Source: Flavobacteriales bacterium
GTDB lineage: Bacteria > Bacteroidota > Bacteroidia > Flavobacteriales_F > PHOS-HE28
Direction of reading: 5' to 3'
Length of the DNA stretch: 64,000 bases
Assembly (NCBI GenBank): GCA_031421755.1
Contig: JANOPI010000575.1
Coordinates: 891-64,890, forward strand
The notes beneath the pieces are model-generated. The model was not told where the DNA came from, did no database searches, and saw nothing but the letters and a program-made list of their open reading frames with translations. A program made the translations under genes and the position numbers. Below are positions 34,788-46,142 of this stretch, piece by piece. Position 1 is the first letter of the stretch. Every line of letters begins with the position of its first letter.

Positions 34788-35237
34788 ATGAAGCGGATAC
34801 CGCACAAGGAGAAGTTGGCCGTGGAACTGAACAAGCCACTTGACCTGTCCACCGTGAAGGCGGATGATGGGACGTGCTTCGGGAAGATGTGGGATCCCAG
34901 CACCGAGGAGTGCCAAGGGTGCGCGGACAGTGACGTGTGCGGCATCCTCAAAGAGCGCACGGTGAAAAGCACAGCCACCCAGGTGGATGATGACGAAGGG
35001 CCGTTCCTGGACACCGCCGGCATGCACCGCCTGATCGATCAGGATATCACCTTGTGGATCAAGAAGGCCATCCGTGCCGGCGATGGGGAACTGAGTTCGG
35101 CCGAGCTGGTGGATGGCGTGATGCAACTGGGTGGCACCAGGGACCGCCAGTCCGCTATCGAACGGATCAAACGCTACAAGGCTACGGGCGTGATCACGAT
35201 CAAGCAGGGGCAAGTGAAATGGATCGGCAAGCGATGA
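34788..35237 (+). CDS. hypothetical protein with a Cys cluster
   Basis: 149 aa. CFGKMWDPSTEECQGCADSDVCG is a possible metal-binding knuckle. Confidence 0.55.
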   Translation: MKRIPHKEKLAVELNKPLDLSTVKADDGTCFGKMWDPSTEECQGCADSDVCGILKERTVKSTATQVDDDEGPFLDTAGMHRLIDQDITLWIKKAIRAGDGELSSAELVDGVMQLGGTRDRQSAIERIKRYKATGVITIKQGQVKWIGKR

Positions 35238-38200
35238 AGAAGCACCTGTGGATCGTTGGTGACTTCCCGTCCATCACGGACCTGGAGCGCGGTACGCCGT
35301 TCCAGAGCAAGCGGGACGGCATGCTCCGCAAGGTGTTGTTCGAGGCCGTTGGTGCCACACCGGAGCTGGTCCATTACGATGTGCTGTTCCCCGATATCAC
35401 ACGCAACGACTGGGAGAAGACGCCGGCCAACAAACAGGGCAGCGATATCGAGGCCCACGTGCTCGCGTTGCACGCCCGCATCATAGAGGCCGCACCGCGC
35501 TGCGTGGTGGCCGTTGGGGGCGTGGCCATGCAAGCACTTTCCGGCATGAAGTCCGACCGCTTGAAGGACCACCGGGGCAAGATCCTGGACTTCCTGGGCG
35601 ATGCGCGGATCAAGGTGGTACCGGTGTGGGATAGCTACTTCGTGGAGCGTGTACGCACCCAGGTGACCCCGTACGCGAACGACCTGATGCGGGCCTGGAA
35701 CATCACCACGGGCAAGACCAGCGGGATCGGCAAGACCAACGTGGTCCTGGTGGACACCGAGGAAAAGTTCTATGAGCTGCTGAAGCACGTGGTGGACACC
35801 GGGGAGTTCTGTTTCGACTTTGAAACCACGGGGCTGGACGTGAACGCTGACGGCTTCGCAGCTACCGTGCTGTCTGTAGCATTCCAGCACGGGGGCGCGT
35901 GGATCATCCCATTGTCCCACAAGGACAGTCCCTTTACCGAGGTGCAGACGCACGCCTTCATGAACACGCTGCGCACGCGGGTGTTCATGAACCCGAACAT
36001 CCGCAAGACAGGTCACAACCTGAAGTATGACCTGCGGGTAGCGTGGAAGCTGTACGGGATCAACGACTGGTGCGGCCGCATGGATGACACCATGCTGATG
36101 AAGCATCTCTATGATGATACCACACCCAACGGCCTGAAGGATATCGTTGGCCAGTATTTCCCCGCGTTCGCCGGCTACGAGGATGAAGTGGGCCGGTACC
36201 AGTGGAACGATGTTCCGTTCAATGTGCTGATCGAGTACGCGGCATGTGATACGGATCTCACCTTCCGCATCCGCACGTTCCTGGAGGAACGGTTGCTGAA
36301 GGACATGAAATTGTACCGGCTCTACCGGAACCTTTCCATGGGCCTGTTGCCGGTGTTGACCGATATCGAGATGCGCGGCATCCTGATCGACCGCAAGAAG
36401 CTGATCAAGAACATCGGCCGCGCGGAGGAACTGATCGATGCGAAGATCAAGAAGCTGCAACGCTACCCGGAGGTGCGTGCAGTGTCGAAGGTGGCCGTGG
36501 AACGTGCCAAGGAAAAGGAGATAGCCAAGATCCGCGAGACGTTGGCGACGATCAAACCGTTGAAGGATGGGGGCAAGGGTGCCCGTGAAACAAAGCTGCG
36601 GGGCAGACTCACCGGGCTAAAGAGTGGCGCGTTACAGGTTGACGTGGAAGCGTTCAATTTCAATAGCCCTCCGCAGCTCGGTGAGCTGCTTTACACCAAG
36701 GCCGGCTTCGGATACAAGGAAGTGTGGGACGATCAGAAGAAAGGCCCCGCCCGCAAGACGGACAAGGACACGCTGACGCGGTTCGAGGATCCGAGCGGGT
36801 TCATCACCGACCTGTTGACGTTGCGATCGCTGACCAAAGTGAAGAGCACTTACCTCGTGGGGATCCTGGAGCGCCTGGACCGCGAGGACATGCTACACTC
36901 AACGTACCTCCAGCACGGGACATTTACCGGCCGCCTGAGCAGCAGGGATCCCAACCTCCAGAACATCCCGGACCCAGGCCGCGTGAAGTGGGAAGAGGCC
37001 CAACAGGTCAGTGCCTTTGTCAAAAACGCTTTCATTGTTCCGGAGGGGTTCACGATGTTACAGGTTGACTACAGCCAAGCGGAATTGCGCCTGATGGCCA
37101 TGTACGCGGGGGAGACTACCATGCTGGAGGCGTATGCCAACGGGGAGGATATCCACGCGCTCACTGCCGCGAAGTTGAACGGCATGACTCTTGAAAAGTT
37201 CAAGTCACTTGACCCGGACAAGATGAAGACGCTCCGGTACCATGCCAAGGCCGGCAACTTCGGGTTGATCTACGGCATGAGCGCCGAGGGGTTCAAGGAA
37301 TATGCGCAGAACGATTATGGGATCATCATGTCGCTGGAGGAGGCGACCCGCATCCGCAACACGTTTTTCCGCACGTATCCCGGCATCTTGGACTATCACG
37401 ATCTGTATGTGGCCAAGGCCCAGAAGTTCGGCTATGTCCGTACGTTCCTGGGCCGCATGCGTCACACCCCGGATATCCACGATCCCAACGAGTTTAAGCG
37501 GGCCATGGATGAACGTGTGGCCGTGAACTGTGTGACGGATGACACAAAGGCCCTCACACAACGGGGCTGGTTGTCCGTGGACGAACTACGAGAAGGCGAT
37601 CAGTTGTACACGGCGGATCCCGAAACGGGTATGGTGGAAGTGCAGCCTTGTCTGAAGGTTAACACAGGGCAGTGGGATGGTGATATGGTGGCCATTGAAA
37701 ACAATGCCATTAGTGTGGTGTCTACCCCCAACCACCGGTGGTTGGTGGATAGGAACAATGGCGGGAATATCACGCACAGGTTCACTGAGAGTTCCAAGCT
37801 GTCCAACCACGGTGATGACAGGATATGGGTCAGTGCCCCAAGTGACTTGAAGGGAAACGGCAAGTGGACTGATGCTGAAGTTGAGGTGATCGGGTGGGTG
37901 CTGACCGATGGGTATTACAAGAAAGCCAAAGGCAAGAACTGTTCAACCATCGCATTGACCCAATGCAAGGCGAAGAATTTTGAAGCCATTGCAAACTGTG
38001 TGGCAGCGGTGCCGGGGTCCAAGGGCGGCTATGTATCAAAGCGCGGTCAGCACCACTGGACTATCAGCGGTAATTTTGCGCGGCGTGTACGGTACATGAT
38101 GCCTGACAAGACGCTCACCCCAGCGTTCCTTGTGCAGTTGAGCACCAAGCAACTGGAATTGTTGTACAACACCATGTTGCTTGGTGATGGTAGCTACGAT

Positions 38201-38797
38201 GCGCATGCCGGTAGGTATCGCAGGTTCACGGCTGGAACTGAGGCACGTGCTGACGCTTTTCTGATGCTCTGCGCGATGATGGGGCAACCAGCGCATGCGT
38301 TTCCACGAGACATGAGCATGTATACACCCAAGTCCGACAAGCTGACTAACGTTCCTGTGATGGGTACAGTGTGGTTGGTGGAGTTGAAGCAGAGGGACAG
38401 GGCCTACGCCAACATTGGGAAGAGCACAGTGAAGTACACCGGCCGTGTGTGGTGCCCCACTGTTTTGAACGGCACGTGGATAGCCAAGCGGAATGGGAAG
38501 GTGTTCATCACAGGAAATTCACCCATACAAGGAGCGGCCGCCGAACTGACTTTGCTGGCCATCGTGATGCTGCGCCAGCGGCTCGATCCCCGGATCCGTA
38601 TGGTGAACACCGTGCATGACTCGATCTTTTTCTATGTGCCGGATGAACTGGTGGCCGATGCCGTGGGTACTATCCGCGCAACCTGTACGGATTTGCCTAC
38701 CGAGATGTATTTCGGCAAGCGCATCGAAGGCGTGACCATGGCGGTGGACGTGGAGTTCACCAAAGAAAATTGGGGATCAATGAAACCACTGCAATGA
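35234..38797 (+). CDS. family-A DNA polymerase with a UDG-family-4-like N-domain and 3'-5' exonuclease, interrupted by an intein
   Basis: Start MKKHLWIVGDFPS (ATGA overlap). UDG-like GDFPSITDLERGTPFQSKRDGML; Exo I FCFDFETTGLD; motif A DYSQAELRLMA; motif B RYHAKAGNFGLIYGMS; motif C VHDSIFF. Confidence 0.9.
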   Translation: MKKHLWIVGDFPSITDLERGTPFQSKRDGMLRKVLFEAVGATPELVHYDVLFPDITRNDWEKTPANKQGSDIEAHVLALHARIIEAAPRCVVAVGGVAMQALSGMKSDRLKDHRGKILDFLGDARIKVVPVWDSYFVERVRTQVTPYANDLMRAWNITTGKTSGIGKTNVVLVDTEEKFYELLKHVVDTGEFCFDFETTGLDVNADGFAATVLSVAFQHGGAWIIPLSHKDSPFTEVQTHAFMNTLRTRVFMNPNIRKTGHNLKYDLRVAWKLYGINDWCGRMDDTMLMKHLYDDTTPNGLKDIVGQYFPAFAGYEDEVGRYQWNDVPFNVLIEYAACDTDLTFRIRTFLEERLLKDMKLYRLYRNLSMGLLPVLTDIEMRGILIDRKKLIKNIGRAEELIDAKIKKLQRYPEVRAVSKVAVERAKEKEIAKIRETLATIKPLKDGGKGARETKLRGRLTGLKSGALQVDVEAFNFNSPPQLGELLYTKAGFGYKEVWDDQKKGPARKTDKDTLTRFEDPSGFITDLLTLRSLTKVKSTYLVGILERLDREDMLHSTYLQHGTFTGRLSSRDPNLQNIPDPGRVKWEEAQQVSAFVKNAFIVPEGFTMLQVDYSQAELRLMAMYAGETTMLEAYANGEDIHALTAAKLNGMTLEKFKSLDPDKMKTLRYHAKAGNFGLIYGMSAEGFKEYAQNDYGIIMSLEEATRIRNTFFRTYPGILDYHDLYVAKAQKFGYVRTFLGRMRHTPDIHDPNEFKRAMDERVAVNCVTDDTKALTQRGWLSVDELREGDQLYTADPETGMVEVQPCLKVNTGQWDGDMVAIENNAISVVSTPNHRWLVDRNNGGNITHRFTESSKLSNHGDDRIWVSAPSDLKGNGKWTDAEVEVIGWVLTDGYYKKAKGKNCSTIALTQCKAKNFEAIANCVAAVPGSKGGYVSKRGQHHWTISGNFARRVRYMMPDKTLTPAFLVQLSTKQLELLYNTMLLGDGSYDAHAGRYRRFTAGTEARADAFLMLCAMMGQPAHAFPRDMSMYTPKSDKLTNVPVMGTVWLVELKQRDRAYANIGKSTVKYTGRVWCPTVLNGTWIAKRNGKVFITGNSPIQGAAAELTLLAIVMLRQRLDPRIRMVNTVHDSIFFYVPDELVADAVGTIRATCTDLPTEMYFGKRIEGVTMAVDVEFTKENWGSMKPLQ
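37529..38518 (+). mobile_element. intein (330 aa) with a LAGLIDADG homing endonuclease, inserted in ..ERVAVN|SPIQGAAAE..
   Basis: Starts CVTDDTKAL. Block B is STPNHRWLV. LAGLIDADG-like motifs GWVLTDGYY and LLGDGSY. Ends VFITGN followed by +1 Ser. Visibly more AT-rich than the flanks. The insertion splits the conserved N-x-P-(I/V)-Q-G pol motif. Confidence 0.85.
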
Positions 38798-39261
38798 GCG
38801 GACGGAGCCCATACAAGACGAAGCGGTTGGCATTTGAGGCCAATGTGACGAAGCACGAAAACGGGTGCTGGTTGTGGAATGGCGCGGTAGTCAATGGCTA
38901 TCCTGTTTTCACTCATAGACCATCGGGCCTTGTGAAAGTCAGTGCCACCAGACTCTCCTGGAGTTTGTACAAAGGCAAGAAGTTGAAGTCCCACGAGTGG
39001 GCATTGCACAAGTGTGATACACCACGTTGTGTTAACCCTGAGCATTTGTTCAAGGGCGACCACGTAAGCAATATGTTGGACATGGTAGCCAAGGGTCGAT
39101 TCTTGAAGGGGGAGAAGAATCCCGGTGTGAAACTGACAGCCGAGAAGGTTGTAGCGATACGCGTGGACAACAGAAGCCGATCGGTTATAGCCGGGCAGTA
39201 TGGTATAGCTGCCAACACGGTGGGCATGATAAAAAGGAAAGAACGTTGGGCACACGTGTAG
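38794..39261 (+). CDS. free-standing HNH homing endonuclease
   Basis: Start at ATG 38794 (ATGA overlap with the polymerase stop). GCWLWNGAVVNGYP..HKCDTPRCVNPEHLFKGDHVSN plus a C-terminal HTH-like IAGQYGIAANTVGMIKRKERW. AT-richer. Confidence 0.8.
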   Translation: MSGRSPYKTKRLAFEANVTKHENGCWLWNGAVVNGYPVFTHRPSGLVKVSATRLSWSLYKGKKLKSHEWALHKCDTPRCVNPEHLFKGDHVSNMLDMVAKGRFLKGEKNPGVKLTAEKVVAIRVDNRSRSVIAGQYGIAANTVGMIKRKERWAHV

Positions 39262-39278
39262 CCCTTTCAAATAGAAAC

Positions 39279-39296
39279 CAACAACAACAACAACAA
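39279..39296 (+). repeat. (CAA)6 microsatellite in the SSB leader
   Basis: caacaacaacaacaacaa read directly. The surrounding leader is A/C-only up to ATG 39316. Confidence 0.9.
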
Positions 39297-39315
39297 CCAA
39301 CACCCGCAGCACAAA

Positions 39316-43358: not shown

Positions 43359-45296
43359 ATGAAGAGGATCAACATCGAGAAGGTCGTGGTACAGGGGTTC
43401 GGAACCTTTGTGCAGCCCTTCGTTTTCGAGATGGATCGTGGAGGCGTGAACATCGTTCGCGGAGTGAACGGCGCGGGTAAAACCACGCTGTTCTCCGCGC
43501 TCGTGTGGTGTCTCTATCAGATCAACTTGAAAGGCAGCTTGAACGATGCCGTTGCCACCTGGAAGAAGGAACGGCCGAAGGACTTCAAGGGCACTCGCGT
43601 GGTCACCACGTTGACAGTGGACGGTGAGAAGTACGCGATAGCGCGGCACCTGAAGTTCGACGGCAAGACCTACGGTGTGCCCGGAGAAAGCGACCTGTTG
43701 ATCTTCAAGGAAAATGCTGAGGGGGAACTGACCAAGGGGTGTCTGGTGTCCGACGTTCGTGGGAAAGCGGACAGCCAGATCCTGGTGGACAAGTTGATCG
43801 GTGTGGACTCGCGCACGTTCCTGAACAGCGTGATGTTCGTGCAACGGTCGAAGCGGTTCATCGAAGCCGATGCCGCAGAGAAGCGCAAGTTGCTGGAGGA
43901 GCTGTTCGATCTCGGGTTCGTTGAAGGCATGAAGGCCAAGGCGGACACCAAGTCCAAGGAGCTGCGCACCGAGCTGGACGAACAGACCAACGAGCGCGGC
44001 CGTATTGAGATCCGCAAGCAGGGGATCCAGGAGCGCATCGATGATGCGGAGAACGTGATTACGCAATGGAAGGAGCGCCAGAAGACTGCGCTCCAGCAAC
44101 TGGTCACCGAGGCCAAGGGCGTGCAGGACGAACATGACCGGAAGGAGAACGCTATCCGTGAGTGCGATGCCACGATCAAAGAGCTGAAGGCCGAATGTGG
44201 TGACACCAAGGCGACCAAGGCCATCACCACAACGATCAACACCACATGGCAAACGGCCCTGGACCTTGTGAGCGCGTCCAAGGCGTACGTGAACGATGTG
44301 AACCGAGAGATCAACCGGCTCGGGGAACAGATCAAGGACAAGGAACTTGATATCAAGAACGTCAAGACCGACTGCCCCACGTGCGGCTCCGCATTGAAGC
44401 CGATGGTGATCGCCGACGTGAAGAAGAAGCTGGGTGGTGAGCTGACCCGCCTGCGTACAGCCCTGGATCACCAAAAGGCCCTGCTGGTCACAGCAACGCA
44501 GAAGGCGACGGATGCCGGTACCGCGTACGAGCTGGCCACCAAGCGCAAGGAAAAGGAGGGCAACGTGCTCCAGCAGAAGTTGACCAAGTACACCCAGGCG
44601 GTACAGCAGCGGGACATTTACGCCGCGGATCTTCCTGGGCTCCAGCAACGGCACACGAAGCTCACCGAACAGATCGCCGCGAACAAGCGCGGTGATGGCA
44701 AGCCGGAGGTGGATGTGGCCGGCCTGGAGAAGCAGGCCCTGGAGCTGGCCGGCACCATCGTGGAACTGAACGAGGGCATCCTGAAGCTGGAGCGCCGGTT
44801 GGCCCGCTATGACTGGTGGAGGACCACCGGCCTTGGTTCCAAGGGGTTGAAGGCTTACGTGTTCTCCGCGATGCTGGAGCAACTGAACGTGTTCATCGAG
44901 AAGTACGCCGAGCGCATGGGCCTTGGCATCCGGTTCTCGGTGGACCTGACCAAGACCAGCGCACCGTTCGTGACCGAGTGCTACAAGGACGGCAACGTGG
45001 TGGACTACCGCGACCTGTCAGGCGGTGAAAAGCAGCGCATCGATATCGCGATGCTGTTCGCTATGCACGATCTTGTCAGTGGCCTCGTGAAGTTCAACGT
45101 GCTGATCATGGATGAAGTGTTCGAGGGGCTGGACCAGGAGGGCATGGAACAGGCGTTCGACATGATCCGCGTCAAGGGTGGTAAGGAGACGACCGTGTAC
45201 GTGATCACGCACAGCAGCCGCGTTGATACGCTCGGATGCCGCAGTATCGATGTGGTGAAGACGGACGGCCAGAGCAGTCTTCAAACCGCAGCGTGA
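43359..45296 (+). CDS. Rad50/SbcC-like ATPase (T4 gp46-like)
   Basis: Walker A GVNGAGKTTLFSAL, long coiled coil with a CPTCG zinc hook, signature LSGGEKQRIDIA, Walker B LIMDEVFEGLD. Confidence 0.85.
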   Translation: MKRINIEKVVVQGFGTFVQPFVFEMDRGGVNIVRGVNGAGKTTLFSALVWCLYQINLKGSLNDAVATWKKERPKDFKGTRVVTTLTVDGEKYAIARHLKFDGKTYGVPGESDLLIFKENAEGELTKGCLVSDVRGKADSQILVDKLIGVDSRTFLNSVMFVQRSKRFIEADAAEKRKLLEELFDLGFVEGMKAKADTKSKELRTELDEQTNERGRIEIRKQGIQERIDDAENVITQWKERQKTALQQLVTEAKGVQDEHDRKENAIRECDATIKELKAECGDTKATKAITTTINTTWQTALDLVSASKAYVNDVNREINRLGEQIKDKELDIKNVKTDCPTCGSALKPMVIADVKKKLGGELTRLRTALDHQKALLVTATQKATDAGTAYELATKRKEKEGNVLQQKLTKYTQAVQQRDIYAADLPGLQQRHTKLTEQIAANKRGDGKPEVDVAGLEKQALELAGTIVELNEGILKLERRLARYDWWRTTGLGSKGLKAYVFSAMLEQLNVFIEKYAERMGLGIRFSVDLTKTSAPFVTECYKDGNVVDYRDLSGGEKQRIDIAMLFAMHDLVSGLVKFNVLIMDEVFEGLDQEGMEQAFDMIRVKGGKETTVYVITHSSRVDTLGCRSIDVVKTDGQSSLQTAA

Positions 45297-45559
45297 TGGC
45301 CTTCAAGTCCGGGTTCAAGATCAGGAAGGCCCCCGAACGTCGGGAGAGCGAACCGGATGAGGTGGTGGAGTACATCGAGCTGAAGGCCACCACGGACAAG
45401 GCGATCCTGTTCACGTTCGAGGTGATCGACAAGGAGCGGCACAAGGTGCTCGTTGATCGGTGGATCCCGAAAAAGTTCGTGCAGGTGGACACTGAGAAAA
45501 AGGAAGTCAGCATCCCGCGCTGGCTTTACCTACGCGAATGGGGGCATCAATATGGGTAA
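45296..45559 (+). CDS. hypothetical protein
   Basis: Internal ATG 45296 (MAFKSGFKIRK..), TGATG overlap. Confidence 0.5.
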   Translation: MAFKSGFKIRKAPERRESEPDEVVEYIELKATTDKAILFTFEVIDKERHKVLVDRWIPKKFVQVDTEKKEVSIPRWLYLREWGHQYG

Positions 45560-46142
45560 CCGACTGATAGAGCATGATCTGTTCGGTACGGAGCCGAGGC
45601 CCAAGCGCGTGAACGGTGACGCCAAGGGGAAGAACAACGAGCGCACGTGCGCTCGCTGGCTTTCCAAGTGGACCGGTGCGCAGTTCAACCGCACGCCCCA
45701 GAGCGGTGGCATGCACCTGAAGAACCAGCTTTTCTGTGGTGATCTTGTTTGCATCACCGAGGGGTTCTACTTCCCCTTCGTGATCGAGACGAAGCACCTG
45801 AAGAACCTGCACGTGACGCCGGACCTGCGGGATAATTCCAAGCTGTTCACCATCTTCAGGCAGGCCAAGCGTGATGCGGACCGCATCGGCAAGCGGCCCA
45901 TGTGCTTGATCCGGTGCAACCGTATGGCCGCCGGTGAGTACGTGCTGATCCTGGAGGACGAGTTCAGCTACAAGCTGGCCGCCGATGCGTTTACCAGGGG
46001 GATCGAGCATATCGCCTATGGCCAGAGCCGAGCCGATGACTTGACGATCAGGGCGTGGATCGCTACGGACCTGCGGGATGTGTACAAGTGGGAACGTTTC
46101 TGCCGGCTGTTGGGTATAACAGGGTCTAAGCTCCCTGCCTGA
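45552..46142 (+). CDS. PD-(D/E)xK nuclease, Hjc-like putative Holliday junction resolvase
   Basis: GKNNERTCARWLSKWTGAQFNRTPQSGG..CGDLVC..FVIETKHLKN follows the archaeal Hjc pattern (ER..L..G..R.P.S..D...E.K). Confidence 0.55.
   Translation: MGNRLIEHDLFGTEPRPKRVNGDAKGKNNERTCARWLSKWTGAQFNRTPQSGGMHLKNQLFCGDLVCITEGFYFPFVIETKHLKNLHVTPDLRDNSKLFTIFRQAKRDADRIGKRPMCLIRCNRMAAGEYVLILEDEFSYKLAADAFTRGIEHIAYGQSRADDLTIRAWIATDLRDVYKWERFCRLLGITGSKLPA

Follow-up and report, generated by a model that had tools for sequence, protein, structure and literature searches.

The window analyzed here, a 64,000-nucleotide stretch of contig JANOPI010000575.1, carries a polymerase gene (35234-38797, + strand) whose 1,187-residue product is composed of an 857-residue family-A DNA polymerase (PolA) and a 330-residue mobile element. 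The element interrupts the conserved motif N↓xPIQG of the polymerase (here and below, the arrow marks an extein-intein junction or the corresponding empty site) and is, judging from its sequence, a mobile intein of a very large and mainly phage-borne family ending in Thr-Gly-Asn. Taken as a whole, the data are likely best explained by an intein composed of a HINT splicing domain and a LAGLIDADG homing endonuclease domain, which resides in a phage PolA and is capable of both splicing and homing.

The polymerase insert and its empty counterparts

The family-A polymerase domain is split into two stretches within the gene, as detected with Pfam. The part that precedes the insert contains three recognizable domains, with Pfam scores of 3.7e-81 for DNA_pol_A, 4.8e-17 for DNA_pol_A_exo1, and 1.5e-6 for UDG, a uracil-DNA glycosylase (UDG) model. 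The segment 37529-38518 is stop-free and in frame with the polymerase, and its translation, CVTDDTKALT...RNGKVFITGN, has exactly 330 residues; across both junctions, the host open reading frame (ORF) reads ...MDERVAVN↓C...FITGN↓SPIQGAAAELT. Coordinates and translation thus agree with a previous reading made from the sequence only, which had placed a 330-residue insert between N and xPIQG at this position. The features of the gene are as follows.

35234-38797, + strand: polymerase gene, 1,187 codons; UDG-like / 3'-5' exonuclease / family-A polymerase
35234..37528, + strand: N-extein; UDG-like domain, 3'-5' exonuclease, and polymerase domain up to ...MDERVAVN
37529..38518, + strand: intein, 330 residues from Cys1 to Asn330, delimited by translation, the family hidden Markov model (HMM), the empty relatives, and the structural model
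37529..37531, + strand: Cys1 codon, block A, N-terminal nucleophile; Cys in 117/117 family members
37724..37741, + strand: block B, TPNHRW; Thr66 (B:7), His69 (B:10), Arg70 (B:11), Trp71 (B:12)
37856..38323, + strand: LAGLIDADG homing endonuclease domain, roughly intein residues 110-265; bounds taken from the secondary structure of the model
37880..37912, + strand: LAGLIDADG motif 1, VEVIGWVLTDG, ending in the putative catalytic Asp127
38159..38191, + strand: LAGLIDADG motif 2, LLYNTMLLGDG, ending in the putative catalytic Asp220
38447..38518, + strand: blocks F and G, VWCPTVLNGTWIAKRNGKVFITGN; Cys309 (F:4), Thr328 (G:5), Gly329 (G:6), Asn330 (G:7)
38519..38797, + strand: C-extein, SPIQGAAAELT... 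to the stop codon; the Ser+1 codon is 38519-38521

The motifs named in the sequence-only reading (Cys1, a TxxH block B, two LAGLIDADG-like motifs, a block F/G region, and Ser+1) were each found in place, the corresponding intein segments being STPNHRW (residues 65-71), GWVLTDG (122-128), LLGDG (217-221), VWCP (307-310), and TGN (328-330). The hallmark residues of inteins, Cys1, T66-P-N-H69, Asn330, and Ser+1, are all present, and they are invariant or near-invariant among the 117 full-length homologues that were extracted from metagenomes and served for the family profile and for the residue counts out of 117 given below. The penultimate His (position G:6), which is common in inteins but does not define them, is absent: the residue at this position is Gly329.

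To find polymerases with an empty site, the conceptually spliced polymerase (857 residues) was searched against 5.8 billion proteins. The four nearest polymerases (P0123-P0126) are 59-70% identical to it, have 861-862 residues, compared with 857 for the spliced product, and are free of the insert. They read contiguously ERVAVN(T/S)PIQGAAAELTLL, and the sole gap in the alignment corresponds to the 330 residues. The insert is likewise absent from all eleven polymerases nearest to the spliced sequence (37-70% identity). The empty site is also observed in DNA, on a syntenic 16-kb contig (L010) that carries the relative P0124, with 48 of 60 nucleotides identical around the junction. The gene order of L010, syntenic with the window, is helicase, two small ORFs, PolA, gp32-like single-stranded DNA-binding protein (SSB), phosphoesterase, and SbcC-like protein. 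The intein-less alleles that the sequence-only reading had proposed to look for are therefore at hand, precisely empty in P0123-P0126 and L010, and its statement that the interrupted stretch is contiguous in intein-less polymerases holds for Vibrio Pol I (ERAAINAPMQGTAADII) as well as for the close relatives. The joined flanks, ...GTGGCCGTGAAC↓TCACCCATACAAGGAGCGGCC, would form the candidate target of the endonuclease. Among deposited phages, no match to 35000-39300 was obtained by megablast, and a search of IMG/VR with the N-extein returned only two distant loci, with 22% identity.

The insertion site, (R)xxxN↓xPxQG, is located in a conserved helix between polymerase motifs B and C, a segment that in E. 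coli Pol I holds Asn845 and Gln849. In the latter enzyme, these two residues touch the minor groove of the DNA. Since the interrupted segment holds residues contacting the minor groove, the unspliced precursor should be inactive, and the phage would depend on splicing.

The polymerase's N-terminal domain (35234-35730, + strand) resembles family-4 uracil-DNA glycosylases according to the Pfam UDG match cited above; the NCBIfam UDG_fam4 score of this domain is far under the cut-off of that model. In precomputed Pfam lists, the UDG match is absent from the four closest polymerase relatives and present in several more distant polymerases (P0127, P0128, P0130, and others). A UDG-like domain also occurs in several intein-bearing PolA proteins.

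Fold, family, and mobility of the intein

The insert was modeled by AlphaFold2 with 24 homologues, with a predicted local distance difference test score (pLDDT) of 91.3 and a predicted template modeling score (pTM) of 0.90. The model displays a predicted HINT fold, together with a two-motif LAGLIDADG domain of the pseudo-dimeric alpha-beta-beta-alpha-beta-beta-alpha type. When the whole chain was compared by Foldseek with the Protein Data Bank (PDB), the matches were the intein-endonucleases TliVMA, PhoVMA, PI-PfuI, and PI-SceI (E = 1e-16 to 1e-9, template modeling (TM) scores of 0.6-0.68), while the central domain matched I-DmoI with a TM score of 0.57-0.69 normalized to the target. Among predicted viral structures, the query-normalized TM score (TMq) reached 0.8-0.86 for intein segments in polymerase, portal, TerL, phosphoesterase, and methylase proteins. 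In addition, the family profile matched the endonuclease domain of PI-PkoII at 4.3e-9, with both LAGLIDADG motifs aligned. Single-sequence searches of the PDB gave only a block A similarity to the RecA mini-intein and chance matches.

The archaeal and yeast intein-endonucleases TliVMA and PhoVMA (PDB 7QSU and 7QST), PI-PfuI (1DQ3), PI-SceI (1VDE), and PI-PkoII (2CW7) share the two-domain architecture and the fold of the window intein, whereas the sequence identity is only 7-14%. They end in His-Asn and mostly carry an Asp at F:4, where the window intein has Gly-Asn and Cys309; the latter is also smaller (330 residues) and devoid of their extra DNA-recognition region.

The helices carrying the two LAGLIDADG motifs end, in the model, at Asp127 and Asp220. 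An acidic residue (Glu or Asp) occupies position 127 in 115 of the 117 homologues, with Trp123 conserved in 116 and Gly128 in 114; position 220 is Asp in 116 and the Gly that follows is kept in 115, as is Gln145 in 116. Because both acidic residues and Gln145 are conserved, the homing endonuclease looks intact at the sequence level.

The family profile matches only this ORF in the window, with an E-value of 1.5e-109, and the family is found once in the whole 4.8-Mb assembly. The hosts of the 117 homologues are PolA, class III ribonucleotide reductase (RNR), N4/N6 methylases, portals, terminases, family-B polymerase, glycosyltransferases, and others. When the profile was searched against 1.84 billion cluster representatives, 9,476 matches were obtained at E <= 1e-30. 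A tblastn search of the insert against deposited phages returned 300 records; the matches inspected directly start with C(V/L)xxxT and end with TGN↓S/T, their hosts being GordTnk2 TerL, a mangrove-phage portal, a mycobacteriophage DNA methylase, and a gut-phage DNA polymerase I. One of the matches, in Bobi gp73 (45006-45986), has exactly the intein coordinates that Kelley et al. 2016 list in their Table S2 (PMC5050341).

The signature of the Thr-Gly-Asn phage intein family, i.e., Cys1, HR at B:10-11, WC at F:3-4, and TGN at G:5-7, is complete in the window intein. Actinophage inteins (Bethlehem gp51, DNMT-1/2, portal, and TerL) have in common with it Cys1, TxNHR, two LAGLIDADG motifs, VWC, and TGN↓S/T, but they are inserted in phosphoesterase, methylase, portal, and terminase genes rather than at PolA N↓xPIQG, and the identity is only 22-30%. 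The similarity extends from end to end: the inteins of Bobi, Dorothy, GordTnk2, and Woes are 26-30% identical over 100% of the length, and that of Bethlehem gp51, a recombination directionality factor (RDF) / metallophosphoesterase, aligns over its residues 95-411 with an E-value of 4e-12. With the empty alleles, the HINT plus LAGLIDADG model, and this end-to-end homology, the earlier proposal of a LAGLIDADG intein splitting the N↓xPIQG motif of a family-A polymerase is upheld.

In a maximum-likelihood tree, the PolA-site inteins form one clade with a Shimodaira-Hasegawa-like approximate likelihood ratio test (SH-aLRT) support of 100, the window intein being inside it; NrdD-site inteins form another clade (98) and those of one methylase site a third. 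The best relative of the window intein is only 53% identical. Among PolA hosts, the inteins (39-53% identity) are more alike than the exteins (25-36%), the hallmark of an element that homes into a conserved site in divergent genes. The PolA insertion site is common in metagenomes. We did not find a family-A PolA intein described at this site in the literature searched, in which the papers on phiCbK and on crAss-like phages describe inteins in other genes; the window intein is a new example of an intein with an ending and a family that were already known.

Inteins of this broad family, with an xGN↓S/C ending, are also present in other phage PolA genes, namely those of Phage DP SC_2_H4_2017 (MT121960), Pseudomonas phage KIL1, Escherichia phage Mangalyan, and phi92-like phages, but they are only 22-28% identical to the window intein. 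Two of them are inserted elsewhere in the polymerase: KIL1 reads KT↓C...TGN↓CNYASVY and Mangalyan GDAH↓C...CGN↓CNNAKAY.

Two insertion points are slightly offset from the PolA site of the window: the intein of MT121960 (L001 3001-4023), of the same family, lies three residues upstream (RQ↓STN), and a member of the PolA clade, P0035, one residue downstream (NH↓C). These offsets suggest that the same helix was invaded independently or that the insertion point slipped. In some metagenomic proteins of 2,200-3,300 residues (P0243, P0268, P0273, and P0323), 8-10 separate stretches match the family profile, suggesting, as far as the matches go, several family inteins in one host protein.

The sequence-only reading had described the insert as more AT-rich than the extein and had taken this as consistent with a recent invasion. 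The compositional part holds: the intein has a GC content of 0.538 and a GC content at third codon positions (GC3) of 0.658, compared with 0.586 and 0.813 in the N-extein, and GC3 falls from about 0.80 to about 0.65 at the 5' junction. Such a low GC is reached in only 1.2% of 990-bp windows, and such a low GC3 in 4.8% of 330-codon gene windows. The recency is much less apparent, the nearest intein being 53% identical and a co-conversion tract, sought as a dip of extein identity beside the junction, not having been found. With neither a near-identical donor nor a co-conversion dip, the event cannot be dated. The GC3 deficit, the intein-less nearest relatives, and the intact appearance of the nuclease fit a horizontal acquisition by an element that would still be active.

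The low-GC tract spans the intein, the C-extein, and the adjacent HNH gene described below. The 92-codon C-extein (38519-38794, + strand) has an intermediate GC3 of 0.674, and its protein is 68-82% identical to that of intein-less relatives.

The Gly-Asn ending and the splicing route

The ending Gly-Asn, considered unusual in the sequence-only reading, is so only with respect to the textbook His-Asn: within the family it is the rule. Among the 117 homologues, Thr G:5 is present in 115, Gly G:6 in 116, and Asn G:7 in 117. At position +1, 69 of them have Ser, 41 have Thr, and 7 have Cys. At the other conserved positions, the counts are 117 for Cys1, 117 for His B:10, 114 for Arg B:11, 49 for Trp B:12, 116 for Trp F:3, and 112 for Cys F:4, with Ser in the five remaining members. 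An exhaustive search yielded 206 further domains, 205 of which have Cys1 and most of which end in xGN. This ending has also been studied experimentally. The intein of Bethlehem gp51, with its penultimate Gly (TGN), splices to completion, whereas its G316H variant is slower and accumulates precursor (Kelley 2016, PMC5050341). In the structure of the AceL NrdHF intein, block B contains His68-Arg69 and the intein ends in Thr144-Gly145-Asn146 (Hoffmann 2020, PMC7891396). Arg69 forms a hydrogen bond with the carbonyl of the C-terminal scissile bond and its replacement (R69A) slows splicing, while the G145H substitution abolishes splicing, with a modeled clash between the introduced His and Arg69 (PMC7891396).

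AceL NrdHF (PDB 6ZGQ) is the best match of the family profile among solved splicing domains (2.2e-7), with SPNHRM aligned over TPNHRW; this link emerges only with the family profile. The two inteins have in common HR at B:10-11, a Cys at F:4 (Cys124 in AceL NrdHF), and the Thr-Gly-Asn end. They differ in that AceL NrdHF is a naturally split mini-intein of 146 residues without endonuclease, whereas the window intein is contiguous and carries a LAGLIDADG domain, and in that the former has Ala1 and a Met at B:12 and is experimentally class 3, whereas the latter has Cys1 and a Trp at B:12. Given this homology, and given that Arg B:11 and Gly G:6 are conserved together in the family, we infer that the role of the absent penultimate His is filled by Arg70 in the window intein.

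The following course of events is proposed. The full-size and apparently intact intein would excise itself after translation and join ...ERVAVN to SPIQG..., restoring the polymerase. By the class 1 route, Cys1 would form a thioester, Ser+1 would take over the N-extein, and Asn330 would cyclize, an O-to-N shift completing the ligation. Arg70 of block B would polarize the C-terminal scissile bond in place of a His, which would clash if present at position 329. At the DNA level, during co-infection, the endonuclease would cut polymerase alleles lacking the intein at the joined site, with repair then copying the intein in; such homing would explain the spread of the intein among divergent PolA genes.

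As to the chemistry of the first step, class 1 splicing is the probable route on sequence grounds, in view of the invariance of Cys1, the presence of Trp B:12 in only 49 of 117 members, and the NrdD-site members with a Ser at F:4. These members form a NrdD subclade (P0044, P0058, P0064, P0067, and P0088; site GFQ↓xPFxNITLD) in which block F reads IWSV... while Cys1 and TGN are kept. A detail missed by the earlier reading bears on the choice of the initiating nucleophile, with class 1 favored: Trp71 (B:12), Cys309 (F:4), and Thr328 (G:5) form, alongside Cys1, the Trp-Cys-Thr (WCT) triplet that defines class 3 inteins (PMC2807308). The same combination of the full triplet with Cys1 is observed in all 34 inteins of the PolA clade.

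Accordingly, the insert may be a real intein that follows a class 3 route or a two-cysteine relay, Cys1 being either dispensable or the first station of the relay; we hold this to be rather unlikely. Besides the triplet, it is favored by the spacing of 21 residues between Cys309 and Asn330, equal to that between Cys118 and Asn139 of the class 3 intein Msm DnaB-1 (numbers from PMC5222942), by the Ser or Thr found at +1 in most family members, as in class 3 inteins (PMC2807308), and by the fact that the best PDB splicing-domain match of the family profile, AceL NrdHF, is experimentally class 3 (PMC7891396) and differs chiefly by Ala1. Moreover, Tori et al. (PMC2807308) list three WCT inteins beginning with Ser1 or Cys1, and in later definitions of class 3 an N-terminal nucleophile is merely "not required" (PMC5222942). 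By the original definition, class 3 inteins have no N-terminal nucleophile, and Hoffmann et al. likewise ask for the absence of a Cys at position 1, whereas Cys1 is invariant here (117/117, and 205/206 in the further domains), which is unexpected for a dispensable residue. Trp B:12 is far from general in the family, and the NrdD subclade keeps Cys1 with a Ser at F:4, while the C320S substitution kills the prototype class 3 intein (PMC2807308). Bethlehem gp51, a member of the family with a Val at B:12 and hence without the full triplet, is treated as class 1 by Kelley et al. (PMC5050341), and grafting of WCT onto a class 1 intein gave no class 3 splicing (PMC7664689).

The class 3 inteins MP-Be DnaB and Msm/Mch DnaB-1 (PMC2807308, PMC7664689) share with the window intein the WCT triplet, the Ser/Thr at +1, and an association with phages, but in them an N-terminal nucleophile is absent or dispensable and the penultimate His is mostly retained, where the window intein has Cys1 and Gly. 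In class 3 splicing, the Cys of block F is the obligate initiating nucleophile and gives a branched intermediate at block F. It is conceivable, though improbable, that the PolA clade, with its Cys1, triplet, block B Arg, and penultimate Gly, is neither plain class 1 nor class 3. Possible forms may be a thioester relay from Cys1 to Cys309 to Ser+1 or a redox-gated Cys1-Cys309 pair. Alternatively, class 3 inteins of the AceL NrdHF type may have arisen by loss of Cys1 from a phage-borne class 1 stock, of which the clade would be a living representative.

That the insert is a decayed or splicing-dead remnant, with a polymerase either non-functional or working with the insert retained, appears very improbable. 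The missing penultimate His and the Pfam and NCBIfam models left under threshold would speak for it, but all residues conserved in the family are present, the ORF is uninterrupted and of full length, and the model is confident over the entire insert. Furthermore, the site lies within a conserved polymerase helix, the gene is the polymerase found in the replication module of the window, and relatives with the same ending (Bethlehem gp51 and AceL NrdHF) splice efficiently. Finally, a lineage-specific accessory domain of the polymerase, as might be imagined from the about 30 other metagenomic PolA proteins with an insert at the same position, can practically be dismissed, being contradicted by the occurrence of the same module with identical boundaries in unrelated hosts (terminases, portals, methylases, RNRs, glycosyltransferases, and family-B polymerases), by the nearest polymerases precisely without insert, by the HINT plus LAGLIDADG fold, and by the discordant similarities of intein and extein.

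Several points weigh against the interpretation of the insert as a splicing and homing class 1 intein. When the insert was scanned by itself, Pfam gave Hint_2 at 17 bits for a cut-off of 28.4 and no LAGLIDADG match, and NCBIfam gave no match. A near-identical donor is lacking, the nearest intein being as distant as stated above, and hence neither a donor nor a recent transfer can be named. The equivalence to AceL NrdHF at the C-terminus was taken from the residue numbers of the published paper, only the N-terminal half being aligned. The class 1 assignment is not secure, in view of the full triplet and class 3 spacing in the PolA clade and of the class 3 nature of AceL NrdHF, and the splicing, the endonuclease activity, and the target site of this protein are all inferred.

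Phage context and implications

The window derives from the contig of an uncultured myovirus-like phage, with genes for tail sheath, baseplate, tape measure protein, helicase, SSB, and an SbcC-like protein. It corresponds to positions 891-64890 of the contig (C575), the length of which is about 80.7 kb according to the record of the polymerase protein; the contig is binned in an assembly of 4.8 Mb and 587 contigs, with a completeness of 97.6% and a contamination of 6.3%. Directly downstream of the polymerase, the following gene is observed.

38794-39261, + strand: free-standing HNH-type homing endonuclease gene; alternative TTG start at 38770; overlaps the polymerase stop (ATGA)

This gene matches the PHROGs annotation endonuclease/HNH endonuclease at 9.5e-22, with a weak Pfam match to zf-His_Me_endon, and its GC content of 0.512 is the minimum of the neighborhood. 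In L010, PolA is directly followed by the SSB gene, with no trace of the HNH gene. With the intein and the HNH gene, the polymerase locus of the window thus holds two independent mobile endonuclease elements. Together, this phage and its syntenic relative without both elements constitute a natural pair for studying homing in co-infection.

As the element escapes Pfam and NCBIfam, annotation pipelines will mis-size this gene, and the same is expected for the about 30 metagenomic PolA relatives with an intein at the same site. Protein ligation is a further, practical reason for interest in efficient inteins with a Ser+1 and a small endonuclease domain, which are of use as tools for it. For the chemistry of inteins, a single example adds little, since the Gly-Asn ending is the norm of the family and has been tested. 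The NrdD subclade with a Ser at F:4 offers a natural experiment on the need for the block F Cys, and the PolA clade, abundant and endowed with the nucleophiles of both class 1 and class 3, offers a system in which to address which Cys starts splicing and how class 3 inteins originated.

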